64,000 nucleotides of DNA from Alphaproteobacteria bacterium (GCA_031555055.1 JAVBUT010000002.1:210165-274164), one strand, 5' to 3'; positions 11,526 to 49,227 are shown, numbered from the stretch's first letter. Notes: generated by a model from the sequence alone, not told the origin. Translations and numbers: made by a program.

Positions 11526-11822
11526 ATGAACGAAGACGAAAGAATGTTTCAGTGGGGTATCGGGCTGGCGATGGCGGTGCTGATGCTGACGGCGGGTCTG
11601 CAGGTGTGCTATCGCGTCCAGGACAAGACACGCGCGCGGACCAGGGCTGAAATCGTGAAAACACAACAGGAAACTGCGATCGCTGCGTCGAATTTTGCGG
11701 CCTATGTCCGGCCGGAAATACTGCGCAATGCGGTGACCGGACTGTATCCGAACGCCGAAGTTATCAGTTTTAAAAAATCAATATCAATTGACGAATTGCC
11801 GGCGCGTGAAATAAAAGAATAG
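11526..11822 (+). CDS. ftsL: small single-TM protein upstream of ftsI, FtsL-like
   Basis: Position immediately 5 prime of PBP3 gene. One TM helix. 98 aa. Confidence 0.4.
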   Translation: MNEDERMFQWGIGLAMAVLMLTAGLQVCYRVQDKTRARTRAEIVKTQQETAIAASNFAAYVRPEILRNAVTGLYPNAEVISFKKSISIDELPAREIKE

Positions 11823-13840: not shown

Positions 13841-15607
13841 TTGAGAAAGATAGTAGAAAGATCCATGCTGGGCAAAGCGTGGGTTTGCGCGACAGAGTAT
13901 GAAGAAAACACGCCCAGCAGTACGATTTTAAAAGAAGACTTGTTAAAGAAAATATTGGAATCGCGCGGCGTTCGTAGCGGGGTCGATACCAGCAAGTTTT
14001 TAAATCCCAGCATAAAAGAATACATGCCCGACCCCAGCGTGCTGGCCGATATGGATTCGGCGGCGCGTATAATTGTCGACAATATTGTCGCCGGGCGGAA
14101 AATTGCCATATACGGCGACTATGACGTGGACGGAATAACGTCCAGTGCGATCATGGTGAAATATCTGCGTGCGGTTGGCGCAAACGTCGTATGGCACCTG
14201 CCAACGCGCGAAGGCGAAGGGTATGGTCTGAACTGTGATGCCGTCAGTGCGATCGCCGCGGACGGGGTCAATCTGATCGTGACCGTCGATTGCGGAATCA
14301 GCGGCGTGGAAGAAATTGCGCTGGCTAAAAAACTGGGGCTGGATGTCGTTGTTACCGATCATCATTCGCCTGACGGGAATCTGCCGGCGGCCGACGCGGT
14401 CGTGAATCCCAAACGCCTGGACGATACGTCCGGGATGTCTTATCTGGCGGGTGTCGGCGTGGCTTTTATGACACTGGTCGCCGTGAATAGAGAACTGAAG
14501 TCCAGAAATGACGATAAATTCCAAATTCCGCATTCTTTATTTTTGATCGATCTGATGGATTTGGTCGCGCTGGGGACGATATGCGACACAATGCCGTTGG
14601 TGGGACTGAATCGTGCGTTTGCTGCGACCGGCCTGAAAGTTCTGGCCAAGCGAAACAATGTCGGCCTGCGCGCGTTGATGGATATTGCAGTAATTAAATA
14701 GCAGACCAAATACAGCGTGATGTTCGCGCTGGGGCCGCGGTTGAATGCGGCGGGCCGTCTGGATTCTGCGGCGCCGGCGCTGGAACTGTTGTTGACGGAC
14801 AATATACTGGTCGCGAACGATCTGGCGGCAAAATTAAACCGCATGAACCAGGAACGCATAGATGTTCAAAATGCAATCATGATAAGTGCGACCGAAATGG
14901 CCCAGAAATGTTGCGCTTTGGGAAAATGCAGCCTGTTCGTATGTGGCGATAACTGGCGCACTGGGGTTATGGGGATCATCGCCGGGCGGCTGAAAGACAA
15001 ATATAACCTGCCGACATGTGTTGCGACGAAATGCGACGGCGTGATTGACGGGTCCGGCCGTTCTATACCGGGCGTCGATCTGGGGCGCATTGTCCATGAT
15101 GCGGCGGCATTGGGAATAATCAGCGGCGGCGGCGGCCATGCGGCGGCGGCCGGGTTTACTTTGCCGGCAGAGAATGAACAGAAATTCTGCGAATTTTTGG
15201 AAAAATCCGTCTTGGCGCAGTTGGATGGGAAAATTCCGGAAAACGAAACGGTTGTTGATGCCGAAATGGATGCCGGTGGCGCAACGATGAAGCTGGTGGA
15301 ACAACTGGCGGAACTGGAACCGTTCGGCCAGGCCAATCCGGAACCGACACTGGTACTGCGTGGCGGGACATTGGCCCACGCGACGATAATGGGCAAGGGC
15401 GGAACGCACTTGCGCGGATATATCAATACAGGCAACGGATCGCGCCTGGCGTTTGTGGGATTTAATATGGTCGGGACGCCGGTCGGTGATTTTTTGCTGG
15501 ACGATGCGCATACAAATACTAAAATGATGATGTTGGGAAAGTTAAAGGAAAACGAATACCAAGGCCGCGTATCGGCACAGTTCATTTTGGAAGACTTGGC
15601 AATTTAA
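13841..15607 (+). pseudogene. recJ: recJ single-stranded-DNA exonuclease interrupted by an in-frame TAG at 14699-14701 (two ORFs 13841-14701 and 14717-15607 in the same frame)
   Basis: DHH motifs (YGDYDVDG, DHH) in the first part. Conserved FALGPRLNAAGRL and DHHA1 region in the second part. The frames are identical and separated by a single amber codon. Confidence 0.6.
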
Positions 15608-21082: not shown

Positions 21083-21145
21083 AATGATTCCTTCTTTATA
21101 ACCCCCAGTATATCAGAAATAAAATGCCCGCAAGGGGCATTTGAT

Positions 21146-21180
21146 TTATGGTGGTGGGGGATATTACACAATTATCGAAC
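21146..21180. repeat. att-like direct repeat R1 (hairpin + ttatggtgg...attatcgaac); copy of R2 at 21781
   Basis: ttatggtggtgggggatattacacaattatcgaac preceded by hairpin aaatgcccgcaaggggcat. Same architecture as the tRNA-Lys 3 prime end plus terminator at 23050-23085. Confidence 0.5.
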
Positions 21181-21269
21181 TTCGCCAAAAGGCTTCGTAC
21201 GACAAGTCGAACTAATTTCCCAAGAAAATTTCTTGGTTTGGTTCATAAAATCAGATAATTTAAAAAAAA

Positions 21270-21719
21270 TTAACCCCGCCCCATACCTTTCCACGCATCG
21301 GCATATTTTTTATTTTTCCATTCTTCAACAGTGTTTCCTGCTTCTAAAAAATTAAACATTTCATATTTTTTCTTTTCAGCCAATTCTTGACTATTTCCAC
21401 CATTATCTACGAAATGATTCAACAATATCATAACATCATTTTCTGGAACATGAAGCGCATACCAAAATACAGATGTATGTCGTTTATTGTCATAACATGG
21501 CATCTTATCACACATTTTACGCCAATTTCTGAAACAACAGGACGAGCAACTGCTAACGCCTATGTTATCATCATTGTCCCACATATTCACAGAAGCGCAA
21601 ACATTGTTTTCAATTGAACGCTCTTTTAAATAAGATGGAATATTTTTCATTTTGCACCTGTTTTTTGAATAATAGTTCGATAATTGATAAAAGACAATAT
21701 TTTTATTAAAACACATCAT
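21270..21719 (-). CDS. hypothetical Cys-rich protein, AT-rich islet gene
   Basis: 149-aa ORF at about 33% GC, between att-like repeats R1 and R2. Confidence 0.4.
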   Translation of the reverse strand: MMCFNKNIVFYQLSNYYSKNRCKMKNIPSYLKERSIENNVCASVNMWDNDDNIGVSSCSSCCFRNWRKMCDKMPCYDNKRHTSVFWYALHVPENDVMILLNHFVDNGGNSQELAEKKKYEMFNFLEAGNTVEEWKNKKYADAWKGMGRG

Positions 21720-21780
21720 CTAACCGGTCAAAGAGCGTGCGAATACAAAGAAAAACGCACCCGTAACAGGTGCGTGTGTT

Positions 21781-21821
21781 TTATGGTGGGGGATATTACA
21801 CAATTATCGAACTAATTTCCC
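21781..21821. repeat. att-like direct repeat R2
   Basis: ttatggtgggggatattacacaattatcgaactaatttccc preceded by hairpin aaacgcacccgtaacaggtgcgt. Confidence 0.5.
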
Positions 21822-21893
21822 GGGTGAGTTTGTTGAATTAGTAAGAAAGATATAAAACTTTATAAATAAAAATTAATATGTTACAATTCAATC

Positions 21894-22973
21894 ATGATTC
21901 TTCTAGACTATAATATTCTTGAACAAAAGAAAAACACTTTGGATAAAAAAGTGTTCAAAAAATTACAAAAGAAAGCGGATGAAGCACTATATGCTAAAAA
22001 TGAAACGATTTTAGATTTTCCAGGCTTTCCGAAAGATAAAAAAGATTATTATAGCCTGGCTGCGTATTATCATAAATCACCAGACGGAAAATACATTAAG
22101 CATGATGGTATATATAACCAAGAATCACGTAATGGCCCCAAGGATGTTATGTCGCGATTAACGGATGATGTATTGATTCTTGCTTTGGCTGGGTACTTTA
22201 TTGATAAAAAATATTCCGCACGTGCCGCAGAACGCCTTTCTGCTTGGTTTTTGAGCCCAAACGGCATGAATCCAAACTTAATCTATGCCCAGGCCATACC
22301 GGGCAATGATATTGGACGTCCTGCTGGAATTATTGATGCTCATCACTGGATAAATATTATAACGGCGATTGATTTAATTGAACTTGTAATAACAGATAAT
22401 AAATTTCTGACAGAAATGAAAGAGTGGTTTGGTAAATTTGCGGATTGGTTGCATACCAGTGATAATGCCAATAATGTCCGTGAAATCGGAAATAATATTA
22501 ACGCGTGGAGAAATACGGCAACGCTTGTATTTGCATTATTTGCTGGTAATCGGGATAAAATTGTTAATAAATGTTATGATGAATTTAAAGATATATTAGA
22601 ATCAAAGACTGATGAACAAGGGTGCTTTGTTAGTGAATTAGATAGAACAAGATCATTACACTATAACCTATTTTTTCTTGACGCTATGGCCGTTGCGGCC
22701 GAGGCAGCATACAATCAAGGTATTGATCTTTGGCACTATTTTTCGCCAACGAAAAAGAACATAGAAAATTCATTTGATTTTCTGGGGCAATTTTTGATGG
22801 GCAAACCATGGCCGTATCCACAAATGACGGAAGAGTTTAAGAAACGAAATTCTTTTTATATTGCTGCGGTTCGCTTGAATCGACCCGATTTTATAGATAT
22901 TAATCAAGGGCTTGTGGATAATACTTGGCACGCGCACCTTGGTCCAGCTTGGCTATGGCATGGCGAACATTAG
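21894..22973 (+). CDS. polysaccharide-lyase-like protein (alginate lyase / heparinase II/III-like fold), AT-rich islet gene
   Basis: 359 aa. Motif region RSLHYNLFFLDAMAVAAEAAYNQGIDLW resembles the alginate-lyase NNHSYW core. About 34% GC. Adjacent to tRNA-Lys. Confidence 0.4.
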   Translation: MILLDYNILEQKKNTLDKKVFKKLQKKADEALYAKNETILDFPGFPKDKKDYYSLAAYYHKSPDGKYIKHDGIYNQESRNGPKDVMSRLTDDVLILALAGYFIDKKYSARAAERLSAWFLSPNGMNPNLIYAQAIPGNDIGRPAGIIDAHHWINIITAIDLIELVITDNKFLTEMKEWFGKFADWLHTSDNANNVREIGNNINAWRNTATLVFALFAGNRDKIVNKCYDEFKDILESKTDEQGCFVSELDRTRSLHYNLFFLDAMAVAAEAAYNQGIDLWHYFSPTKKNIENSFDFLGQFLMGKPWPYPQMTEEFKKRNSFYIAAVRLNRPDFIDINQGLVDNTWHAHLGPAWLWHGEH

Positions 22974-23080
22974 TTCGATAATGGATGATTTTTGGTGTTT
23001 TTGGAAAAACACATAATCGAACTCACCCAAGAGCATGTAAATCCAAAGAAAACCGCCCTTTGCGGGCGGTCAGTGTTTCA

Positions 23081-23156
23081 TGGTGGACGAGCAGGGACTC
23101 GAACCCTGGACCCACTGATTAAGAGTCAGTTGCTCTACCAACTGAGCTACTCATCC
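23081..23156 (-). tRNA. tRNA-Lys (anticodon CUU)
   Basis: Cloverleaf read from the reverse complement: GGATGAG/CTCGTCC acceptor stem, D-loop AGTTGGTA, anticodon loop CTCTTAA, T-loop GGTTCGAGTCC, CCA encoded. Terminator hairpin at 23052-23070. Confidence 0.9.
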
Positions 23157-27779: not shown

Positions 27780-28637
27780 TTACTTTATTTTTACGATATT
27801 TAATAGCAATTGTGTGTGACCGATATCGTCGGTTGCTTGTTTGAATTTTTCAGCGTGCACGCCGAATTTATTCAATCGTTTGTTCATATACGCCAGTGGG
27901 AAATAATCTTCGGAAATCATAAGCATCAGTTTTCCATTCGGCTTTAAAAATTTAAGTCCATGCGTCACGTAATTTTCATGCGCCTTGTAATTCGGATCCG
28001 ATACCATGTAATTCATCAGTTCAGACCTGTTAGTATGCGCATGATCCAAATATGGCGAGTTCCAAAATATCAGGTCGAATTTCTGACCGATTTTTATGCA
28101 TCCGAACACATCGCTTTGGACACATGATATTTTTTTATCCAATCCGTGTATGTGCACGTTTTCGGCGCAATTTTTAACAGCCGGCATTGATATATCAGCA
28201 CACAGTACGCGCGATAAATCGTATTCCAAACATGCCGATATTCCCATAACTCCGGTGCCGCATCCCATATCTAGCATAGCCTGGCCAGGCTTTAAGGGTA
28301 ATGCCGGCACAATCGCCGTCGCGCAACGCCAAGTCAATGGTGAAAACACATTTTTATGCAGGACAAATTCCCGTCCTAGGGTATTAAACTTTTTTGGAAA
28401 ATCGCCATCTTGGGATTCGACGAACATCTGCTCGCACAGGCCAAAGTTTTTATTGGTTAATTTTTCTTCCCGAATGGACTGTTGGATTTTTCGCAACGGC
28501 GCTGTTTCTTCGTGTAATTCTTGGGTATCCCAATCCTGTGGTGCACTGGATGCATAAGAATGCTGGTTGCGTAATGGGGTGGTGCTGCATTGTTCCTGAA
28601 GTCTTTGTGATGCGATTAAGTCTTTTGCTGATAACAT
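27780..28637 (-). CDS. class I SAM-dependent methyltransferase, small-domain (RsmC/PrmC-like, NPPY-type motif NSPY)
   Basis: Motif I LDMGCGTGVMGI. Motif IV DLIFWNSPY. AGGAGA RBS. Start chosen at MLSAKDL. Confidence 0.55.
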   Translation of the reverse strand: MLSAKDLIASQRLQEQCSTTPLRNQHSYASSAPQDWDTQELHEETAPLRKIQQSIREEKLTNKNFGLCEQMFVESQDGDFPKKFNTLGREFVLHKNVFSPLTWRCATAIVPALPLKPGQAMLDMGCGTGVMGISACLEYDLSRVLCADISMPAVKNCAENVHIHGLDKKISCVQSDVFGCIKIGQKFDLIFWNSPYLDHAHTNRSELMNYMVSDPNYKAHENYVTHGLKFLKPNGKLMLMISEDYFPLAYMNKRLNKFGVHAEKFKQATDDIGHTQLLLNIVKIK

Positions 28638-28650
28638 AACTTCTCCTGTT

Positions 28651-29016
28651 TTATTTCCCGTTGCGCATATTTTCGGTACATATTTTTTCAGCGGTCTTGT
28701 GATATGATAATATTTTTTCGCGCGCGGCAAACGCGTTTTCTTTTGTCATTTCTATTTTTTTGCTTTTAATATTATACACGGTTTCATCGTTCAGCAGACT
28801 GTTGTAAAAATGGTATTTGCTAACCAGTAAATCACGCACGCTGGTCCAGCATATGGCGGATTCATCGTTTGGATTGCAGTCACTGCATAATTTGGTGTTG
28901 AAGAATTCTGACAGCGCCGGTTCGCCGAATTCGCTGCGTGGGCAGTTGATTTCTGTGTATGGCGGTTTATTGTACATTCTGCGTGTCATGCGTACAAAAT
29001 TTTCTGGGCTTAACAT
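28651..29016 (-). CDS. hypothetical protein with C-x16-C-x2-C-x10-C spacing
   Basis: ORF begins 4 nt after the gatB stop. No recognisable domain. Confidence 0.3.
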   Translation of the reverse strand: MLSPENFVRMTRRMYNKPPYTEINCPRSEFGEPALSEFFNTKLCSDCNPNDESAICWTSVRDLLVSKYHFYNSLLNDETVYNIKSKKIEMTKENAFAAREKILSYHKTAEKICTENMRNGK

Positions 29017-29019
29017 TTT

Positions 29020-30558
29020 TTATCCATTTAGTTTTTTGGTTAGTATTTCAGATACGATCGCCGGGTTTGCTGAACCGCCGGTGGCCTTCATAACATTGCC
29101 GACAAAGAATCCCATCAGGCCCGTCTTGCCGGCGCGGTATTGTTCAACCTGACCGGCATTGGCGGCGATGACATCATCGATCGCTTTTTCAATCGCGCCG
29201 GTATCGGTGATCTGCTTCATGCCGAATTTATCGGCGATCTGTTTCGGTGTTCCCGGTTCGTTATCCAGCATTTTGATAAAGATTTCTTTGGCCTGTTTAC
29301 CATTGATTTCGGATGCCGCGATCATATCGACCAGTTCGGCCAGATCGGATGGTTGAATTATACGAGGATAATTACTCCCCCCAAGGGGGGAGTAATTTGC
29401 CTGGTTGCCAAGCACAAAATGTTCCGGATGCGCGAACAGTTCAGAAATCATCCAGTTTGCGATCGGTTTTGCGCGGGCGGGTTTATCACCCACAGCCGCG
29501 TCGAACCATTTTGAAATATCGACAGTCTCGGTCAGGCGCGTTGCGTCATATTCAGATAAACCCCAGGCAGAGATGTATCGAGCGCGTGTCGCCGCCGGCA
29601 ATTCCGGCAGTGTTTCGCGTATGCGTTCAATGGTCTCTTCGCTGATGATCAGCGGTAATAAATCCGGGTCCGGAAAGTGACGGTAATCCAACGCGTCTTC
29701 TTTGGATCGCATTACGGATGTTGTGCCTGTGTCCTGATTATATCGCATTGTATCTTGGGAAACGGTACCGCCGGATTCCAAGATTTCGATTTGGCGGCGT
29801 GCCTCAAATTCAATTGCGGTTTTAATAAATTTACACGACACCATGTTTTTGGTTTCCGTGCGGGTGCCAAATTTTGTGTCGCCGACACGACGGACCGATA
29901 CATTGACGTCGGCACGCATGGAACCTTCTTCCATGTTGGCGTGGCTGACACCCAATGCGCGTGCGATTTCGCGAATCTGGCGCAGGTATCTTTCTGCTTC
30001 GTCCGGTGATGTTATGTATGAATTTTCTTGCGCGTTTTTAACGTCCAAAAATGTCACGATTTCCAACAGCGCGACCCCGGTGCGGTTATAATCTGCAAAA
30101 GATTTTGTCGGATGCGCGTCATGTTTCAGTTTTCCCGCGTCCTGTTCCAAGTGTGCGCGTTCGATCAGAATTTTTTTAGGTTTACCGTCGTCGCCCAAGA
30201 TTTCGACATGGCCACGGCCAACGATTGGCGGTGCGTCTGCGGGTTGCGTGATTTGGTAACCCTGGGGCAGGTCGGGGTAAAAGTATTGCTTGCGCGTGAA
30301 TATCGACCGGCGCGTGATGTCGGCATTTATCCCCAGTCCGAATCGAATTGCCTGTTCAACACAGAATTCGTTCAACACGGGCAGCATGCCAGGCATTGCA
30401 ACGTCAACCATGGAAACTTGGGTATTTGGTGCAATGGTTGGGTTATAGTCCGCGCTGGCCCCGCTGAATACTTTGGCATTGGACAATACTTCGATATGCG
30501 TTTCCAGCCCGATTACCAATTCCCAATCGCCCGTTTTCCCCGTAATTATGTATGTCAT
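29020..30558 (-). CDS. gatB: Asp-tRNA(Asn)/Glu-tRNA(Gln) amidotransferase subunit B
   Basis: N-terminus W.LVIGLETHIEV and GatB/YqeY C-terminal region. Contains an in-frame 29-bp perfect palindrome at 29369-29397. Confidence 0.9.
   Translation of the reverse strand: MTYIITGKTGDWELVIGLETHIEVLSNAKVFSGASADYNPTIAPNTQVSMVDVAMPGMLPVLNEFCVEQAIRFGLGINADITRRSIFTRKQYFYPDLPQGYQITQPADAPPIVGRGHVEILGDDGKPKKILIERAHLEQDAGKLKHDAHPTKSFADYNRTGVALLEIVTFLDVKNAQENSYITSPDEAERYLRQIREIARALGVSHANMEEGSMRADVNVSVRRVGDTKFGTRTETKNMVSCKFIKTAIEFEARRQIEILESGGTVSQDTMRYNQDTGTTSVMRSKEDALDYRHFPDPDLLPLIISEETIERIRETLPELPAATRARYISAWGLSEYDATRLTETVDISKWFDAAVGDKPARAKPIANWMISELFAHPEHFVLGNQANYSPLGGSNYPRIIQPSDLAELVDMIAASEINGKQAKEIFIKMLDNEPGTPKQIADKFGMKQITDTGAIEKAIDDVIAANAGQVEQYRAGKTGLMGFFVGNVMKATGGSANPAIVSEILTKKLNG
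29369..29397. repeat. perfect 29-bp palindrome inserted in-frame in gatB (encodes NYSPLGGSNY)
   Basis: taattactccccccaaggggggagtaatt. Confidence 0.7.
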
Positions 30559-30613
30559 GACTATTTTCTCTTGCTTTTTTGTTTTTCGTACCTTATTATT
30601 CGTCCACTGTTTC

Positions 30614-30689
30614 GGCTGGGTAGCTCAGTTGGTAGAGCAAGGGACTGAAAATCCCTGTGTCGGCGGTTCGATTCCGTCCCCAGCCACCA
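30614..30689 (+). tRNA. tRNA-Phe (anticodon GAA)
   Basis: GGCTGGG acceptor, TAGCTCAGTTGGTAGAGC D-arm, anticodon loop CTGAAAA, GGTTCGATTCC T-arm, CCA encoded. Confidence 0.9.
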
Positions 30690-30892
30690 GATTATAACAA
30701 AATGTTCCGTAAGGGACATTTTTTTATAATCTTTGTTGTTTTGTACCATTAAACCGCCCACAGGGATTTGAAGGTACTGAATCCGAGCGTATAAGCACAC
30801 AAAAATTTTCGTTGTTAGAAAATTTTTGATGTGCGCATAGTCGAGGATACGCGGCTCACTTGATAAATATTTACACTTGGGACCAAGCGAGC

Positions 30893-30935
30893 GAAAATCC
30901 CTGTGTCGGCGGTTCGATTCCGTCCCCAGCCACCA
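30893..30935 (+). repeat. direct duplicate of the 3 prime 43 nt of tRNA-Phe (anticodon loop to CCA); att-site remnant
   Basis: gaaaatccctgtgtcggcggttcgattccgtccccagccacca is identical to 30647-30689. Confidence 0.8.
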
Positions 30936-31019
30936 CAAATTTTCGTTATATTTTTGCAAGGCAAAAATTTTAAGAAAATTTAGTGCCCCACGAAGCCTTG
31001 GCGAAGTGGGGCTTTTTGT

Positions 31020-32504
31020 TTATTCTCCTATCACCTTCGTTGGTCTGTTATCCAGGTTTGCAAATGATTCGATATTCTTGGCCAATTGCAATACGCGTAC
31101 ATCGTCAAAGCGACGGCCCACTATATGGATACCCAATGGTAATCCATCGGCGTTACGACCGCCCGGTACAGATATAGCGGGCAGGCCGGACATGTTTGCC
31201 GATACCAGCATTGCGGATGATATTTCATCCTGGTCATCGTTCAAACTGTCGCTTAATGGATATGCCGCGCATGGTGCGCCCGCCGTCAGTATCAGATCAC
31301 ACTGTTCGAACGCCGCGATAAATTCATTGTCGATCATGCGACGGATTTTTGCCGCCTGAACAAAACATGGTTCATAAAAGTTATGCGTCAGCATTGTCGA
31401 TCCCGTGACCAGGCGGAACTTTACATTATCGCCGAATCCAGCCGCGCGGGTCTTCATATATGTGTCGTTTAAATCTTTGCCTTCGACACGCAATCCGTAA
31501 CGCATACCGTCATATCGGGCAAGATTAGACGATGCCTCGGCACGGGCGATAACGCGGTACAATGTCGCGGTCAGCATGATGTGCGGTATTGAAACCGTCA
31601 CAATTTCCGCGCCATTCGCGCGCAGGTTTTCGATGTGCTTATCAACAACAGATTTCATGTCGTCGCTGATGCCGGGGGCGTCATTAATTTCGCGAATGAC
31701 GCCGATACGCAGGCCTTTTAATTCAATTGGGCCCAGTGCAGATTTAAGATTGTTAACAATTTCATCGGCGTTTGGGGCGGATGTAGAATCGTTCTTATCG
31801 TGGCCGGCCATTGCACTTAACATCAATGCGCAATCATCAACAGTGCGTGCGATCGGGCCCGGATGATCCAGACTGGACGCGAATGCGATACAGCCAAAGC
31901 GGGAACACAGACCGTATGTCGGCTTGAACCCGACCAGGCCAGTAAAACTGGCCGGGATACGGATCGAATCCCCTGTGTCCGAACCGGTTGCGCACAATGC
32001 CATACCGCTGGCCACGGCGGTGACCGCGCCACTGGACGATCCACCAGGGGTCAATTTTTTATCCGCATTATATGGATTGATCGCCGCGCCAAAGTACGAT
32101 GTCTTGCCCGTGCCCGCCATTGCGAATTCGTCCATATTCGATTTGCCCAGCAAGACACATCCGGCGTCGATCAGTTTTTGTGATACGGTCGATTCATATT
32201 CTGGGATAAAATTTTCCAGCATGTACGAACCGGCCGTGGTGCGGATTCCGCGTGTGCAGAAATTATCCTTCATAACCATCGGAATGCCTTCCAGTTCGCG
32301 CGCCGTGCCATTCGCATAGCGTTTGTCTGATTCCGCCGCGTCCGCCAAAGCGCGTTCGCGTGTGACGGTAATATAGGCATTTAATTCTGGATTTAGTTTT
32401 TCAATACGATCCATGTATGCCACAGTCAGCGACGTACAGGTGATTTCACCAGATTTTAATTTGCTTAGCGCTGTGGTTAATGTCAGGTCAATAAGGTGCG
32501 TCAT
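31020..32504 (-). CDS. gatA: Glu-tRNA(Gln) amidotransferase subunit A (amidase signature family)
   Basis: Amidase signature GGSSSGAVTAVASG with Ser-cisSer-Lys triad context. 494 aa. Confidence 0.9.
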   Translation of the reverse strand: MTHLIDLTLTTALSKLKSGEITCTSLTVAYMDRIEKLNPELNAYITVTRERALADAAESDKRYANGTARELEGIPMVMKDNFCTRGIRTTAGSYMLENFIPEYESTVSQKLIDAGCVLLGKSNMDEFAMAGTGKTSYFGAAINPYNADKKLTPGGSSSGAVTAVASGMALCATGSDTGDSIRIPASFTGLVGFKPTYGLCSRFGCIAFASSLDHPGPIARTVDDCALMLSAMAGHDKNDSTSAPNADEIVNNLKSALGPIELKGLRIGVIREINDAPGISDDMKSVVDKHIENLRANGAEIVTVSIPHIMLTATLYRVIARAEASSNLARYDGMRYGLRVEGKDLNDTYMKTRAAGFGDNVKFRLVTGSTMLTHNFYEPCFVQAAKIRRMIDNEFIAAFEQCDLILTAGAPCAAYPLSDSLNDDQDEISSAMLVSANMSGLPAISVPGGRNADGLPLGIHIVGRRFDDVRVLQLAKNIESFANLDNRPTKVIGE

Positions 32505-32521
32505 TTTATATTACTTTTTTG

Positions 32522-32815
32522 TTATTCATCCATTACCTTGGGCACGGCGAAGTATCCGCGGGATGTGCCGGCGTTGTCCGGCGTGCTTTTTAAAACCGCG
32601 TCGCGGATATTGCCGTCGGTGACGATATCGGCGCGGGTCGGTGCGGCGTGTTGGGCCGGGGTGAACATGGGTTCAATACCAGTTGTATCGATTTTTTTCA
32701 ACATGTCCATCCAGCCGAAAACTTGATCAATGTTCATCTCGGCCAATTTATCATCCGGGATTTCAATCCGGATCAGCGATGTGAATTTTTGCAATTGCTC
32801 TTTGGTGAATGCCAT
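32522..32815 (-). CDS. gatC: Asp/Glu-tRNA amidotransferase subunit C
   Basis: 97 aa, begins MAFTKEQLQKF. Immediately upstream of gatA. Confidence 0.75.
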   Translation of the reverse strand: MAFTKEQLQKFTSLIRIEIPDDKLAEMNIDQVFGWMDMLKKIDTTGIEPMFTPAQHAAPTRADIVTDGNIRDAVLKSTPDNAGTSRGYFAVPKVMDE

Positions 32816-32865
32816 TTTTATTACTCTGTATTTGCTATTTGGTAAAATTGTCATATAATGATACT

Positions 32866-48598: not shown

Positions 48599-49227
48599 TG
48601 GGTAGCGCGACCTTGTCCCAAGGTCGCACGTGACAACCTTGGGACAAGGTTGTCCTACCATTTTCAAGTTAAATGAAAAAATGCAAAACGATGATATATT
48701 TTTCAGAAAGAAATTAGATCATGAAATTCCATATTGGGTTAAGTCGGATTCAATATTTTTTATAACAATAAATACATTGCCACGTGGAAAAAATAATCTT
48801 GCGACTTTTAATATTTCGAAAATAATTAGAGATAGTCTGCGATTTTATCAATCAAAAGGTTTGATATATGTTGAATATTTACTGCTGATGCCGGATCATT
48901 TGCATATGCTGGTCGCATTTAATGATATCCCTATGGAAAAATTTATACAACAATGGAAAAAATATATTTCCAGAAATACAAAGGTTGAATGGCAGCGTGA
49001 TTTTTTTGATCATCGGATACGAAATGGCGAATCTTTGCAAGAAAAAATAGATTATATATCAAATAATCCAGTTCGTAAAAATTTTGTGGTTAATTCGTTT
49101 GATTGGAAGTATCAGTGGTTGAGAGGGATGCATGAATTATCAGATTTTGATTTAGGATCATAATTAGGCATGACCGGTTTGTCCCAAACTGGTCATGTGC
49201 GACCTTGGGGACAAGGTCGCGCTACCC
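48599..49227 (+). mobile_element. REP-RAYT-REP unit: IS200/IS605-like HUH tyrosine transposase (RAYT) flanked by inverted pairs of REP hairpins
   Basis: Left gggtagcgcgaccttgtcccaaggtcgc + gacaaccttgggacaaggttgtc. Right catgaccggtttgtcccaaactggtcatg + gcgaccttggggacaaggtcgcgctaccc. The outermost arms are mutually inverted. Confidence 0.7.
48681..49163 (+). CDS. REP-associated tyrosine transposase (RAYT, IS200-like TnpA)
   Basis: HUH motif MPDHLHMLV. RAYT-type motif WQRDFFDHRIRN with downstream catalytic Tyr region (EKIDYISNNP). About 30% GC. Confidence 0.7.
   Translation: MQNDDIFFRKKLDHEIPYWVKSDSIFFITINTLPRGKNNLATFNISKIIRDSLRFYQSKGLIYVEYLLLMPDHLHMLVAFNDIPMEKFIQQWKKYISRNTKVEWQRDFFDHRIRNGESLQEKIDYISNNPVRKNFVVNSFDWKYQWLRGMHELSDFDLGS

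Follow-up and report, generated by a model that had tools for sequence, protein, structure and literature searches.

A tRNA-Phe gene with an exact distal copy of its 3′ half in the gatA–gatB interval: a probable degraded integration scar

Gene Organization at the gat Locus

The window analyzed here is a 64,000-nucleotide stretch of DNA from an Alphaproteobacteria bacterium, and all positions are counted from its first letter. This 64-kb stretch represents core chromosome near the replication origin, with dnaA, dnaN, gyrB, and Suf genes as well as several aminoacyl-tRNA synthetases and cell-wall genes. The minus strand carries gatC (32522..32854; Pfam GatC, 6.9e-11), gatA (31020..32504; Pfam Amidase, 1.5e-125, with homologues called GatA in their sources), and gatB (29020..30558; Pfam GatB_N, 4.6e-99, and GatB_Yqey, 1.7e-39). 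Between gatC/gatA and gatB lies a plus-strand tRNA-Phe(GAA) gene (30614..30689), which is intact, encodes its CCA end, and is recognized by both ARAGORN and Rfam (RF00005, 72.4 bits). An earlier note on this DNA had placed the tRNA gene inside a gat operon on the opposite strand, and ARAGORN, Rfam, and Pfam bear out that placement.

The relatives available for comparison are distant genomes, with GatA 66-74% identical, rather than strains. A metagenome scan for closer relatives returned nothing above 50% identity, and the best genome reaches 74% in GatA. The lineage is poorly sampled, and its nearest annotated members are named Alphaproteobacteria or Rickettsiales MAGs by their sources. The order gatA, convergent tRNA-Phe, gatB recurs in at least six distant relatives, among them L045 (74%), L002, L050, and L058 (67%). 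Other genes intervene between tRNA-Phe and its gat neighbors in L056 and apparently in L047, while in more distant genomes gatA and gatB are either adjacent (L052, L060) or parted by other genes (L054). Because distant relatives share it, the placement of the tRNA gene inside the operon is no part of the insertion discussed below; it is an old, clade-conserved layout. The arrangement that the earlier note described is unrelated to the insertion, and an unusual gatCA/tRNA-Phe/gatB order is shown to be old and stable in the clade.

Between the tRNA-Phe 5′ end and the start of gatB is a 55-nt spacer (30559..30613) that lies outside the putative scar and contains a motif, CCTTGCTTTTT...CTTATTAT, kept clade-wide. 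An alignment of the window with L045, L002, and L050 reveals invariant columns in this spacer, which is likely a divergent promoter together with a ribosome-binding region. The form CCTTGCTTTT...CTTAT.AT is invariant in the four genomes despite 65-74% GatA identity, and the motif probably combines overlapping divergent promoter and ribosome-binding signals. If the divergent-promoter reading is true, gatB would be transcribed apart from gatCA.

Anatomy of the 43-Nucleotide Repeat

The tRNA-Phe gene is accompanied by an exact copy of its 3′ part, as the earlier note had observed. The proximal block (30647..30689, plus strand) and the distal, attR-like copy (30893..30935, plus strand) both correspond to tRNA positions 34-76, from anticodon base G34 to CCA, and 203 bases (30690-30892) separate the tRNA gene from the distal copy. 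Exact identity extends over 43 nt to the left limit and for 0 nt further rightward, and the repeat ends exactly at the CCA end of the tRNA on the right and at the first anticodon base on the left. Gene and cognate fragment share one replicon and a direct orientation, with the fragment on the 3′ side of the gene. A 28-nt sub-pattern allowing up to 3 mismatches occurs at just these two sites in the window, with 0 expected from 100 shuffles, and the chance expectation for the exact copy is nil. A Logan contig (SRR23967709) independently confirms the junction between the repeat and its distal flank.

The distal copy continues leftward in a decayed form. The 19 nt at 30874..30892 (plus strand) resemble tRNA positions 13-33, with 15/21 matches and a 2-nt gap (P about 8e-4 relative to random 19-mers drawn from the window). 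Identity rises from ~70% to 100% exactly at the anticodon: positions 1-12 are absent, 13-33 are decayed, and 34-76 are perfect. With this 5′ extension and the inverted tRNA-like piece described below, the locus is more complex than the earlier note had described.

The distal fragment is not a tRNA gene. It is called neither by ARAGORN nor by Rfam (at E<=1), and alone it has no significant fold (z = 0.28). A second tRNA gene or a tRNA pseudogene is rejected on the same grounds, since the fragment has no acceptor 5′ strand, no D-arm cloverleaf, and no stable fold. In annotation, it should carry no tRNA label.

The Interval and Its Flanks

The 203-bp interval is structured and non-coding. Directly after tRNA-Phe comes a long, A/T-flanked hairpin of 44 nt (30689..30732, plus strand), evident as an inverted repeat, in the predicted fold, and in a terminator scan (30699-30722). 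It is terminator-like and probably now terminates tRNA-Phe. Its homologue follows tRNA-Phe in L045, where the outer arms are kept and the upper stem bears compensating changes. Further on lies an inverted, decayed tRNA-like piece (30752..30769, minus strand) whose reverse complement, AAATCCCTGTG--GGCGGTT, resembles tRNA positions 36-55. Its local alignment scores 30.5; the highest of 500 shuffled scores was 30, which places the piece at about the 1-in-500 level. The reverse complement of the L002 fragments matches this piece too, L045 carries an inverted GAATCGAACCGC at the matching position, and in the predicted fold the piece pairs with the distal fragment. A second, A/T-rich hairpin in the leftover DNA (30798..30833; CACAAAAATTTTC...GAAAATTTTTGATGTG) is supported by sequence and predicted fold. 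The A/T-rich stretch at about 30772-30815 aligns only marginally with the tRNA (P about 0.02) and is not claimed as a third, older direct copy.

The distal flank (30936..31017, plus strand) consists of an A/T hairpin (30936-30981) followed by a G+C-rich terminator that abuts the gatA stop, with its stem at 30985-31012 and its T-run at 31013-31017 according to both terminator scan and fold. A terminator occupies the same place, the gap between tRNA-Phe and gatA, in insert-free relatives (comparison with L050, L058, L002, and L061). The window spacer folds far better than its shuffles (z = -6.85) because of the pairing between inverted piece and fragment and the other hairpins; the L045 spacer reaches z = -9.0. 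No Rfam family matches in the spacer.

The interval contains no credible open reading frame (ORF), in agreement with the earlier note; the frames listed there are either short or antisense readings of the two tRNA copies. One of these, a 132-aa ORF on the minus strand (30561..30959), spans both copies and holds the peptide WWLGTESNRRHRDF twice, as the antisense translation of the two. It has no Pfam match and no similarity to a tRNA-Phe-targeting phage integrase. The doubled peptide and the absent Pfam match mark it as the artefact that the earlier note had taken it for, and it should be removed from annotation.

Empty and Occupied Sites in Relatives

The distance from the tRNA 3′ end to gatA differs widely among the genomes compared. 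It is 30 nt in L058 (GatA 67%), 32 nt in L050 (67%), and 41 nt in L056 (66-67%), all with a complete tRNA and no repeat. In L048 (68%; 26 nt) and L061 (66%; 29 nt), whose contigs stop within the tRNA, no repeat was seen. The distance increases to 202 nt in L002 (67%), which has two 87-bp units in tandem, to 258 nt in L045 (74%), which has a 69-nt exact repeat, and to 330 nt in the window with its 43-nt exact repeat. Length polymorphism of the gatA/tRNA spacer, the comparison that the earlier note had called for, is thus present, with 30-41 nt in the three relatives that keep an empty site and lack the insert (L058, L050, L056) versus 202-330 nt where the site is occupied. The fixed, shared duplicate that would have spoken against integration was not seen; instead, three different repeat structures coexist with empty sites. 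According to the GatA tree, the occupied sites (window, L045, and L002) fall in two separate clades.

The occupied sites differ in construction. Each 87-bp unit of L002 includes a piece resembling the tRNA 3′ half but with a divergent acceptor arm, and the flank found directly after the tRNA in L050 comes after the last unit in L002. An ancestral flank beyond the last fragment is what insertion at the 3′ end predicts. In L045, each copy of the repeat joins the terminal 19 nt of the tRNA to 50 nt of flank in which the hairpin lies, and the two copies are 109 nt apart. The L045 genome derives from the same run as the window (SRR23967709), and its 76-nt tRNA-Phe is identical. Window and L045 are homologous over the first ~80 nt after the tRNA, which include the hairpin, TTGTTGTT, and the inverted T-arm piece. 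The remaining interiors of window, L045, and L002 are not alignable with one another.

A separate feature of L045 concerns its tRNA-Phe spacer (11580-11690). The 19-nt tRNA-Phe fragment there is also readable as a T-arm-to-CCA piece interrupted within the T-loop, GCGGTTCG[about 82 nt]ATTCCGTCCCCAGCCACCA, and it is preceded by an inverted T-arm piece, such that the palindrome CGAACCGCGGTTCG is formed.

Low-GC Modules behind tRNA-Lys

A second tRNA gene in the window is followed by an array with the same architecture, in which cargo is kept. Behind tRNA-Lys(CTT) (23081-23156, minus strand) lie two modules: (i) module 1, of about 1.3 kb, with an alginate lyase gene (21894-22973, plus strand), and (ii) module 2, of about 0.63 kb, with a 149-aa ORF (21270-21719, minus strand) that has no Pfam match. 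The modules (within 21110-23156) have 35.6% GC versus 46.4% for the window. Each is bounded by a tRNA-3′-end-like site (...GTTCGATAATTGTGTAATATCCCCCACCA) plus a terminator, and an exact 30-nt repeat is common to both sites (21152-21181 and 21784-21813). The ancestral tRNA-Lys flank, seen in L045 with its terminator directly after the tRNA, has been displaced in the window to the distal end of the array, and the adenine glycosylase gene, which comes right after tRNA-Lys in L045, comes after both modules in the window. No integrase is present in the modules. The array strengthens the view that tRNA genes are insertion targets in this lineage.

A different tRNA-Lys-linked element, absent from the window, is found in L045 (18035-18175) and L002 (19965-20100). 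It is a copy of the tRNA-Lys T-arm downstream of tRNA-Lys whose T-loop is split by a 71-nt insert, GGTTCGA[71 nt]AATCCCTACGCGTCC. The insert contains two hairpins, and the L045 and L002 versions align. Of its predicted pairs, 9/23 show pair-keeping changes on both sides, and the element may be a conserved structured RNA. Rfam assigns it to no family, the best match being a sub-threshold one to permuted tmRNA (20.6 bits).

Search for an Integrase and a Cognate Element

No ORF tested by Pfam in the 64-kb window, namely all those of at least 200 aa plus ten of those of at least 90 aa in unassigned gaps, contains an integrase or recombinase domain; the Pfam set consists only of housekeeping genes and one weak IS200/Y1-like match. 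No integrase gene lies between tRNA-Phe and the fragment. An integrase remnant within the 203 bp was also considered and rejected: the six frames are filled with stops save for the antisense-tRNA frame. A BLASTP comparison with the PhiBP82.3 integrase, which targets tRNA-Phe, showed no similarity (E = 2.4).

Searches for a matching element were similarly negative. IMG/VR scans with the 43-nt core, a 34-nt core, the L002 fragment, the P-arm junction, and the tRNA-Lys pseudo-site gave no relevant match, and a scan with the 25-nt 3′ end recovered one contig, which is GC-rich, unrelated, and has a complete, normal tRNA-Phe. Distant blastn against phage and plasmid collections matched the tRNA part alone. 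Neither the interior, nor the 34-43-nt core, nor the P-arm junction is present in any phage, plasmid, or IMG/VR contig. The interior is single-copy in 538 kb (63 sequences, window included). No cognate element with the same att site was found in the window, the 63 sequences (538 kb), or the phage, plasmid, and IMG/VR collections. A MITE or insertion sequence is rejected as well, given the single-copy interior and a 43-nt direct repeat that far exceeds a target-site duplication; the sole inverted repeat considered in this respect is the tRNA-like piece.

Relation to Known Systems

The locus adds one more case to a familiar class of genomic feature. CIMEs are att-flanked, integrase-less remnants of integrative conjugative elements known from streptococci. 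The window resembles them in that attL/attR-like repeats surround DNA without recombination genes, and a tandem build-up at one tRNA site is plausible in view of the L002 units and the tRNA-Lys modules of the window. However, CIMEs measure kilobases and have a known cognate element with the same att, whereas the window unit measures 246 bp and no cognate was found.

The usual signature of integration into tRNA genes is described in PMC4383910 and bioRxiv 10.1101/2020.11.02.365908. Islander lists a 3′ tDNA fragment in 3760/3919 islands and anticodon-centered sites in 2083/3919 (PMC4383910). The window shares with Islander-type tRNA islands an intact tRNA, a direct copy of its 3′ half on the 3′ side, and variable occupancy among relatives. 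It also shares with the anticodon-centered “A” sites a block that runs from the anticodon loop to CCA, 43 bp being a typical length. Unlike islands at tRNA genes, which span several kb or more, the window locus comprises 203 bp without integrase or cargo, and the integrase and length filters of Islander would reject it.

The same target gene is used by the P2-like Burkholderia phages phiE202, phi52237, phiX216, and PhiBP82.3, in which attP is annotated as “45 bp 3′ end of tRNA-Phe (GAA)” (PMC3548686). Their 45-bp sequence is 86% identical to the 43-bp window fragment, and the attP lies within the 3′-terminal part of their integrase gene. These phages differ in being complete, at 35-37 kb, and in residing in Betaproteobacteria; the window interior is dissimilar to their integrase and genome, and the frame through which a phage integrase would read across attP is shut by stop codons in the window.

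Partial tRNA genes are at times mislisted as tRNA genes or pseudogenes, an example being a 44-bp direct repeat that flanks a 21-kb island (PMC9897764). The window fragment likewise stems from partial duplication of a tRNA gene; in contrast to those cases, ARAGORN and Rfam leave it uncalled and the island is gone.

A Probable Degraded Integration Scar and Its Alternatives

The locus is probably a degraded attL/attR integration scar in which just 203 non-coding bases of the element are left. An origin of this kind is favored because the 43-nt exact direct repeat is beyond chance, and the block, which spans anticodon to CCA and is repeated in direct orientation on the 3′ side of the gene, bears the signature of an anticodon-loop tyrosine integrase. 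The presence of three different structures at one tRNA in two clades further favors a targeted process. Site-specific integration, proposed in the earlier note, remains the best explanation of the boundaries, the orientation, and the relatives, while its integrase step finds no counterpart in the window. The same note held that the element had decayed or had been excised imprecisely; decay stands, but imprecise excision is not needed, and an internal deletion between intact att sites fits better.

We infer that an integrase created the repeat and that deletion removed most of the interior. A mobile element (a prophage, genomic island, or integrative element) equipped with an anticodon-loop tyrosine integrase would have inserted by recombination between its attP and the 3′ half of the tRNA-Phe gene in the chromosome, doubling the block shared by attP and attB (43 bp, from base 34 to CCA). 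In attL (30614-30689), the block copy placed beside the tRNA 5′ half would complete a working gene. The attR-like sequence (30893-30935) would be the displaced original 3′ half, kept with its old flank and the terminator abutting gatA, and the decayed, tRNA-like 19 nt to its left would be the element-side (P) arm of attR. A later deletion would have taken the integrase and all cargo and left the 203 non-coding bases, including the hairpin that now serves as tRNA terminator; the essential tRNA and gatA, each with a terminator, would have bounded what the deletion could take. The attP of the element would consist of a P-arm (…GGGACCAAGCGAGC), the core, and a P′-arm (GATTATAAC…), the circular junction would read ...GGGACCAAGCGAGC + core + GATTATAACAAAATG, and the empty site would join tRNA-Phe to CAAATTTTCG (tRNA-Phe straight to CAAATTTTCGTT). 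At the tRNA-Phe locus of the window, the distal flank would be the ancestral one, an assignment to which only its position points (the terminator abutting gatA), not sequence homology. The scar is probably inert today.

Several features complicate this history. The hairpin common to L045 implies either an old insertion or related elements that hit both lineages independently, and if the insertion is old, the perfect repeats (43/43 in the window, 69/69 in L045) need gene conversion. The inverted piece and the possible third decayed copy are not predicted by a single simple event. The 5′ extension and the inverted piece fit a tRNA-derived element arm or successive events and, equally, an older local duplication that has been partly homogenized. 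To our knowledge, 203 bp is far smaller than any autonomous element. Displaced tRNA fragments are a textbook footprint of integrative elements; here the element is lost, and the fragment matters little by itself. Nonetheless, the locus provides evidence of past mobile-element visits although no integrase remains locally, and it marks tRNA-Phe, along with tRNA-Lys, as a recurrent insertion site in a poorly sampled, streamlined-looking lineage.

A simple tandem duplication is rejected: the interior is unrepeated, the sequence after the fragment is unlike that after the tRNA, and a repeat–interior–repeat layout with a unique interior cannot be produced in this manner. A local duplication of another sort, achieved without an integrase, is unlikely but the most probable of the alternatives. 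Here, tRNA positions 13-76 would have been copied about 250 bp downstream by a replication or repair error, through template switching or ectopic repair, and the 3′ 43 nt later matched by short-tract gene conversion. The second copy does reach tRNA position 13 at about 70% identity, like an old copy partly refreshed, pieces resembling the tRNA are present in both orientations, every search for an integrase was negative, and the left interior common to L045 suggests age and hence conversion. Chance boundaries, however, are not expected exactly at the CCA end and the anticodon, a tandem origin would repeat an interior that is single-copy, and RecA-dependent gene conversion works poorly on repeats as short as 43 bp; the three structures in two clades and the cargo-bearing tRNA-Lys modules point to targeting instead. 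It is quite improbable that the 246-bp unit, flanked by attL and attR, is a CIME-like unit still mobile in trans by means of an integrase encoded elsewhere or by a visiting element. The perfection of the window and L045 repeats would argue for recent activity, 246 bp is within the size range of a full attP in lambda-type systems, and L002 shows amplification of units. Against such mobility, no integrase is in reach, no second interior copy occurs in 538 kb, the mobile-element collections hold no matches, the interiors of window, L045, and L002 are unrelated save for the hairpin, and a circle of 87-246 bp is hard to form. If true, these units would be among the smallest att-bounded elements known. 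The broader notion that tRNA genes of this uncultured clade act as docking points for a family of tiny, integrase-less modules, bounded by tRNA-3′-end-like sites and moved in trans, as a cassette-like system rather than dead scars, is similarly given little credence; its candidates are the 246-bp unit, the 87-bp units of L002, the single-gene, low-GC tRNA-Lys modules, and the T-loop-split fragments of L045 and L002.

A functional role for the sequence is highly improbable. The fragment and the inverted piece would then constitute a structured transcript, insulator, or terminator maintained by selection between the convergent tRNA-Phe and gatA, a view with which the strong predicted folds of the window and L045 spacers, a TATAAT box in a hairpin arm, and the T-arm-shaped, tRNA-Lys-linked element of relatives with its compensatory changes are consistent. 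That structure, however, stems from the terminators and from the inverted repeat itself, the interior beyond the first hairpin cannot be aligned with L045 or L002, the feature is missing in relatives that have the gene layout of the window, and neither an Rfam family nor a fold of the fragment alone is found. Least probable of all is a metagenome assembly artefact, in which sequences of co-occurring strains or species with a common tRNA-Phe would have been fused by mistake into one contig. The shared run and the identical tRNA-Phe of the window and L045 genomes would permit such a join, and the Logan contigs break within the repeat and thereby leave the junction between interior and fragment unconfirmed. 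Yet the junction GACCAAGCGAGC|GAAAATCCC must be in real reads, as an assembler cannot invent it, a 43-nt repeat is under typical read length, the window hairpin is unlike that of L045 and thus not borrowed from it, and comparable structures are present in separately assembled genomes of other samples (L002, L045).

Other Features of the Window

Three further features were observed outside the gat locus. A 177-aa ORF right after dnaA (48630-49163, plus strand) weakly matches the IS200-like Y1 transposase at 24.8 bits (cut-off 23; E = 2.6e-5) and could be a tyrosine transposase of the IS200/IS605 or REP-associated type; the genome in which it resides is rich in intergenic hairpins. RecJ appears to be divided between two adjoining plus-strand ORFs (13841-15607), with DHH at 13841-14701 and DHHA1 plus RecJ_OB at 14717-15607, and this split could represent a frameshift, a pseudogene, or a sequencing error. 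A 316-aa methyltransferase ORF (MTS/PrmA-like; 27780-28730, minus strand) lies between the small ORF after gatB and a MiaB-like radical-SAM gene, and L045 has no counterpart of it at that position.
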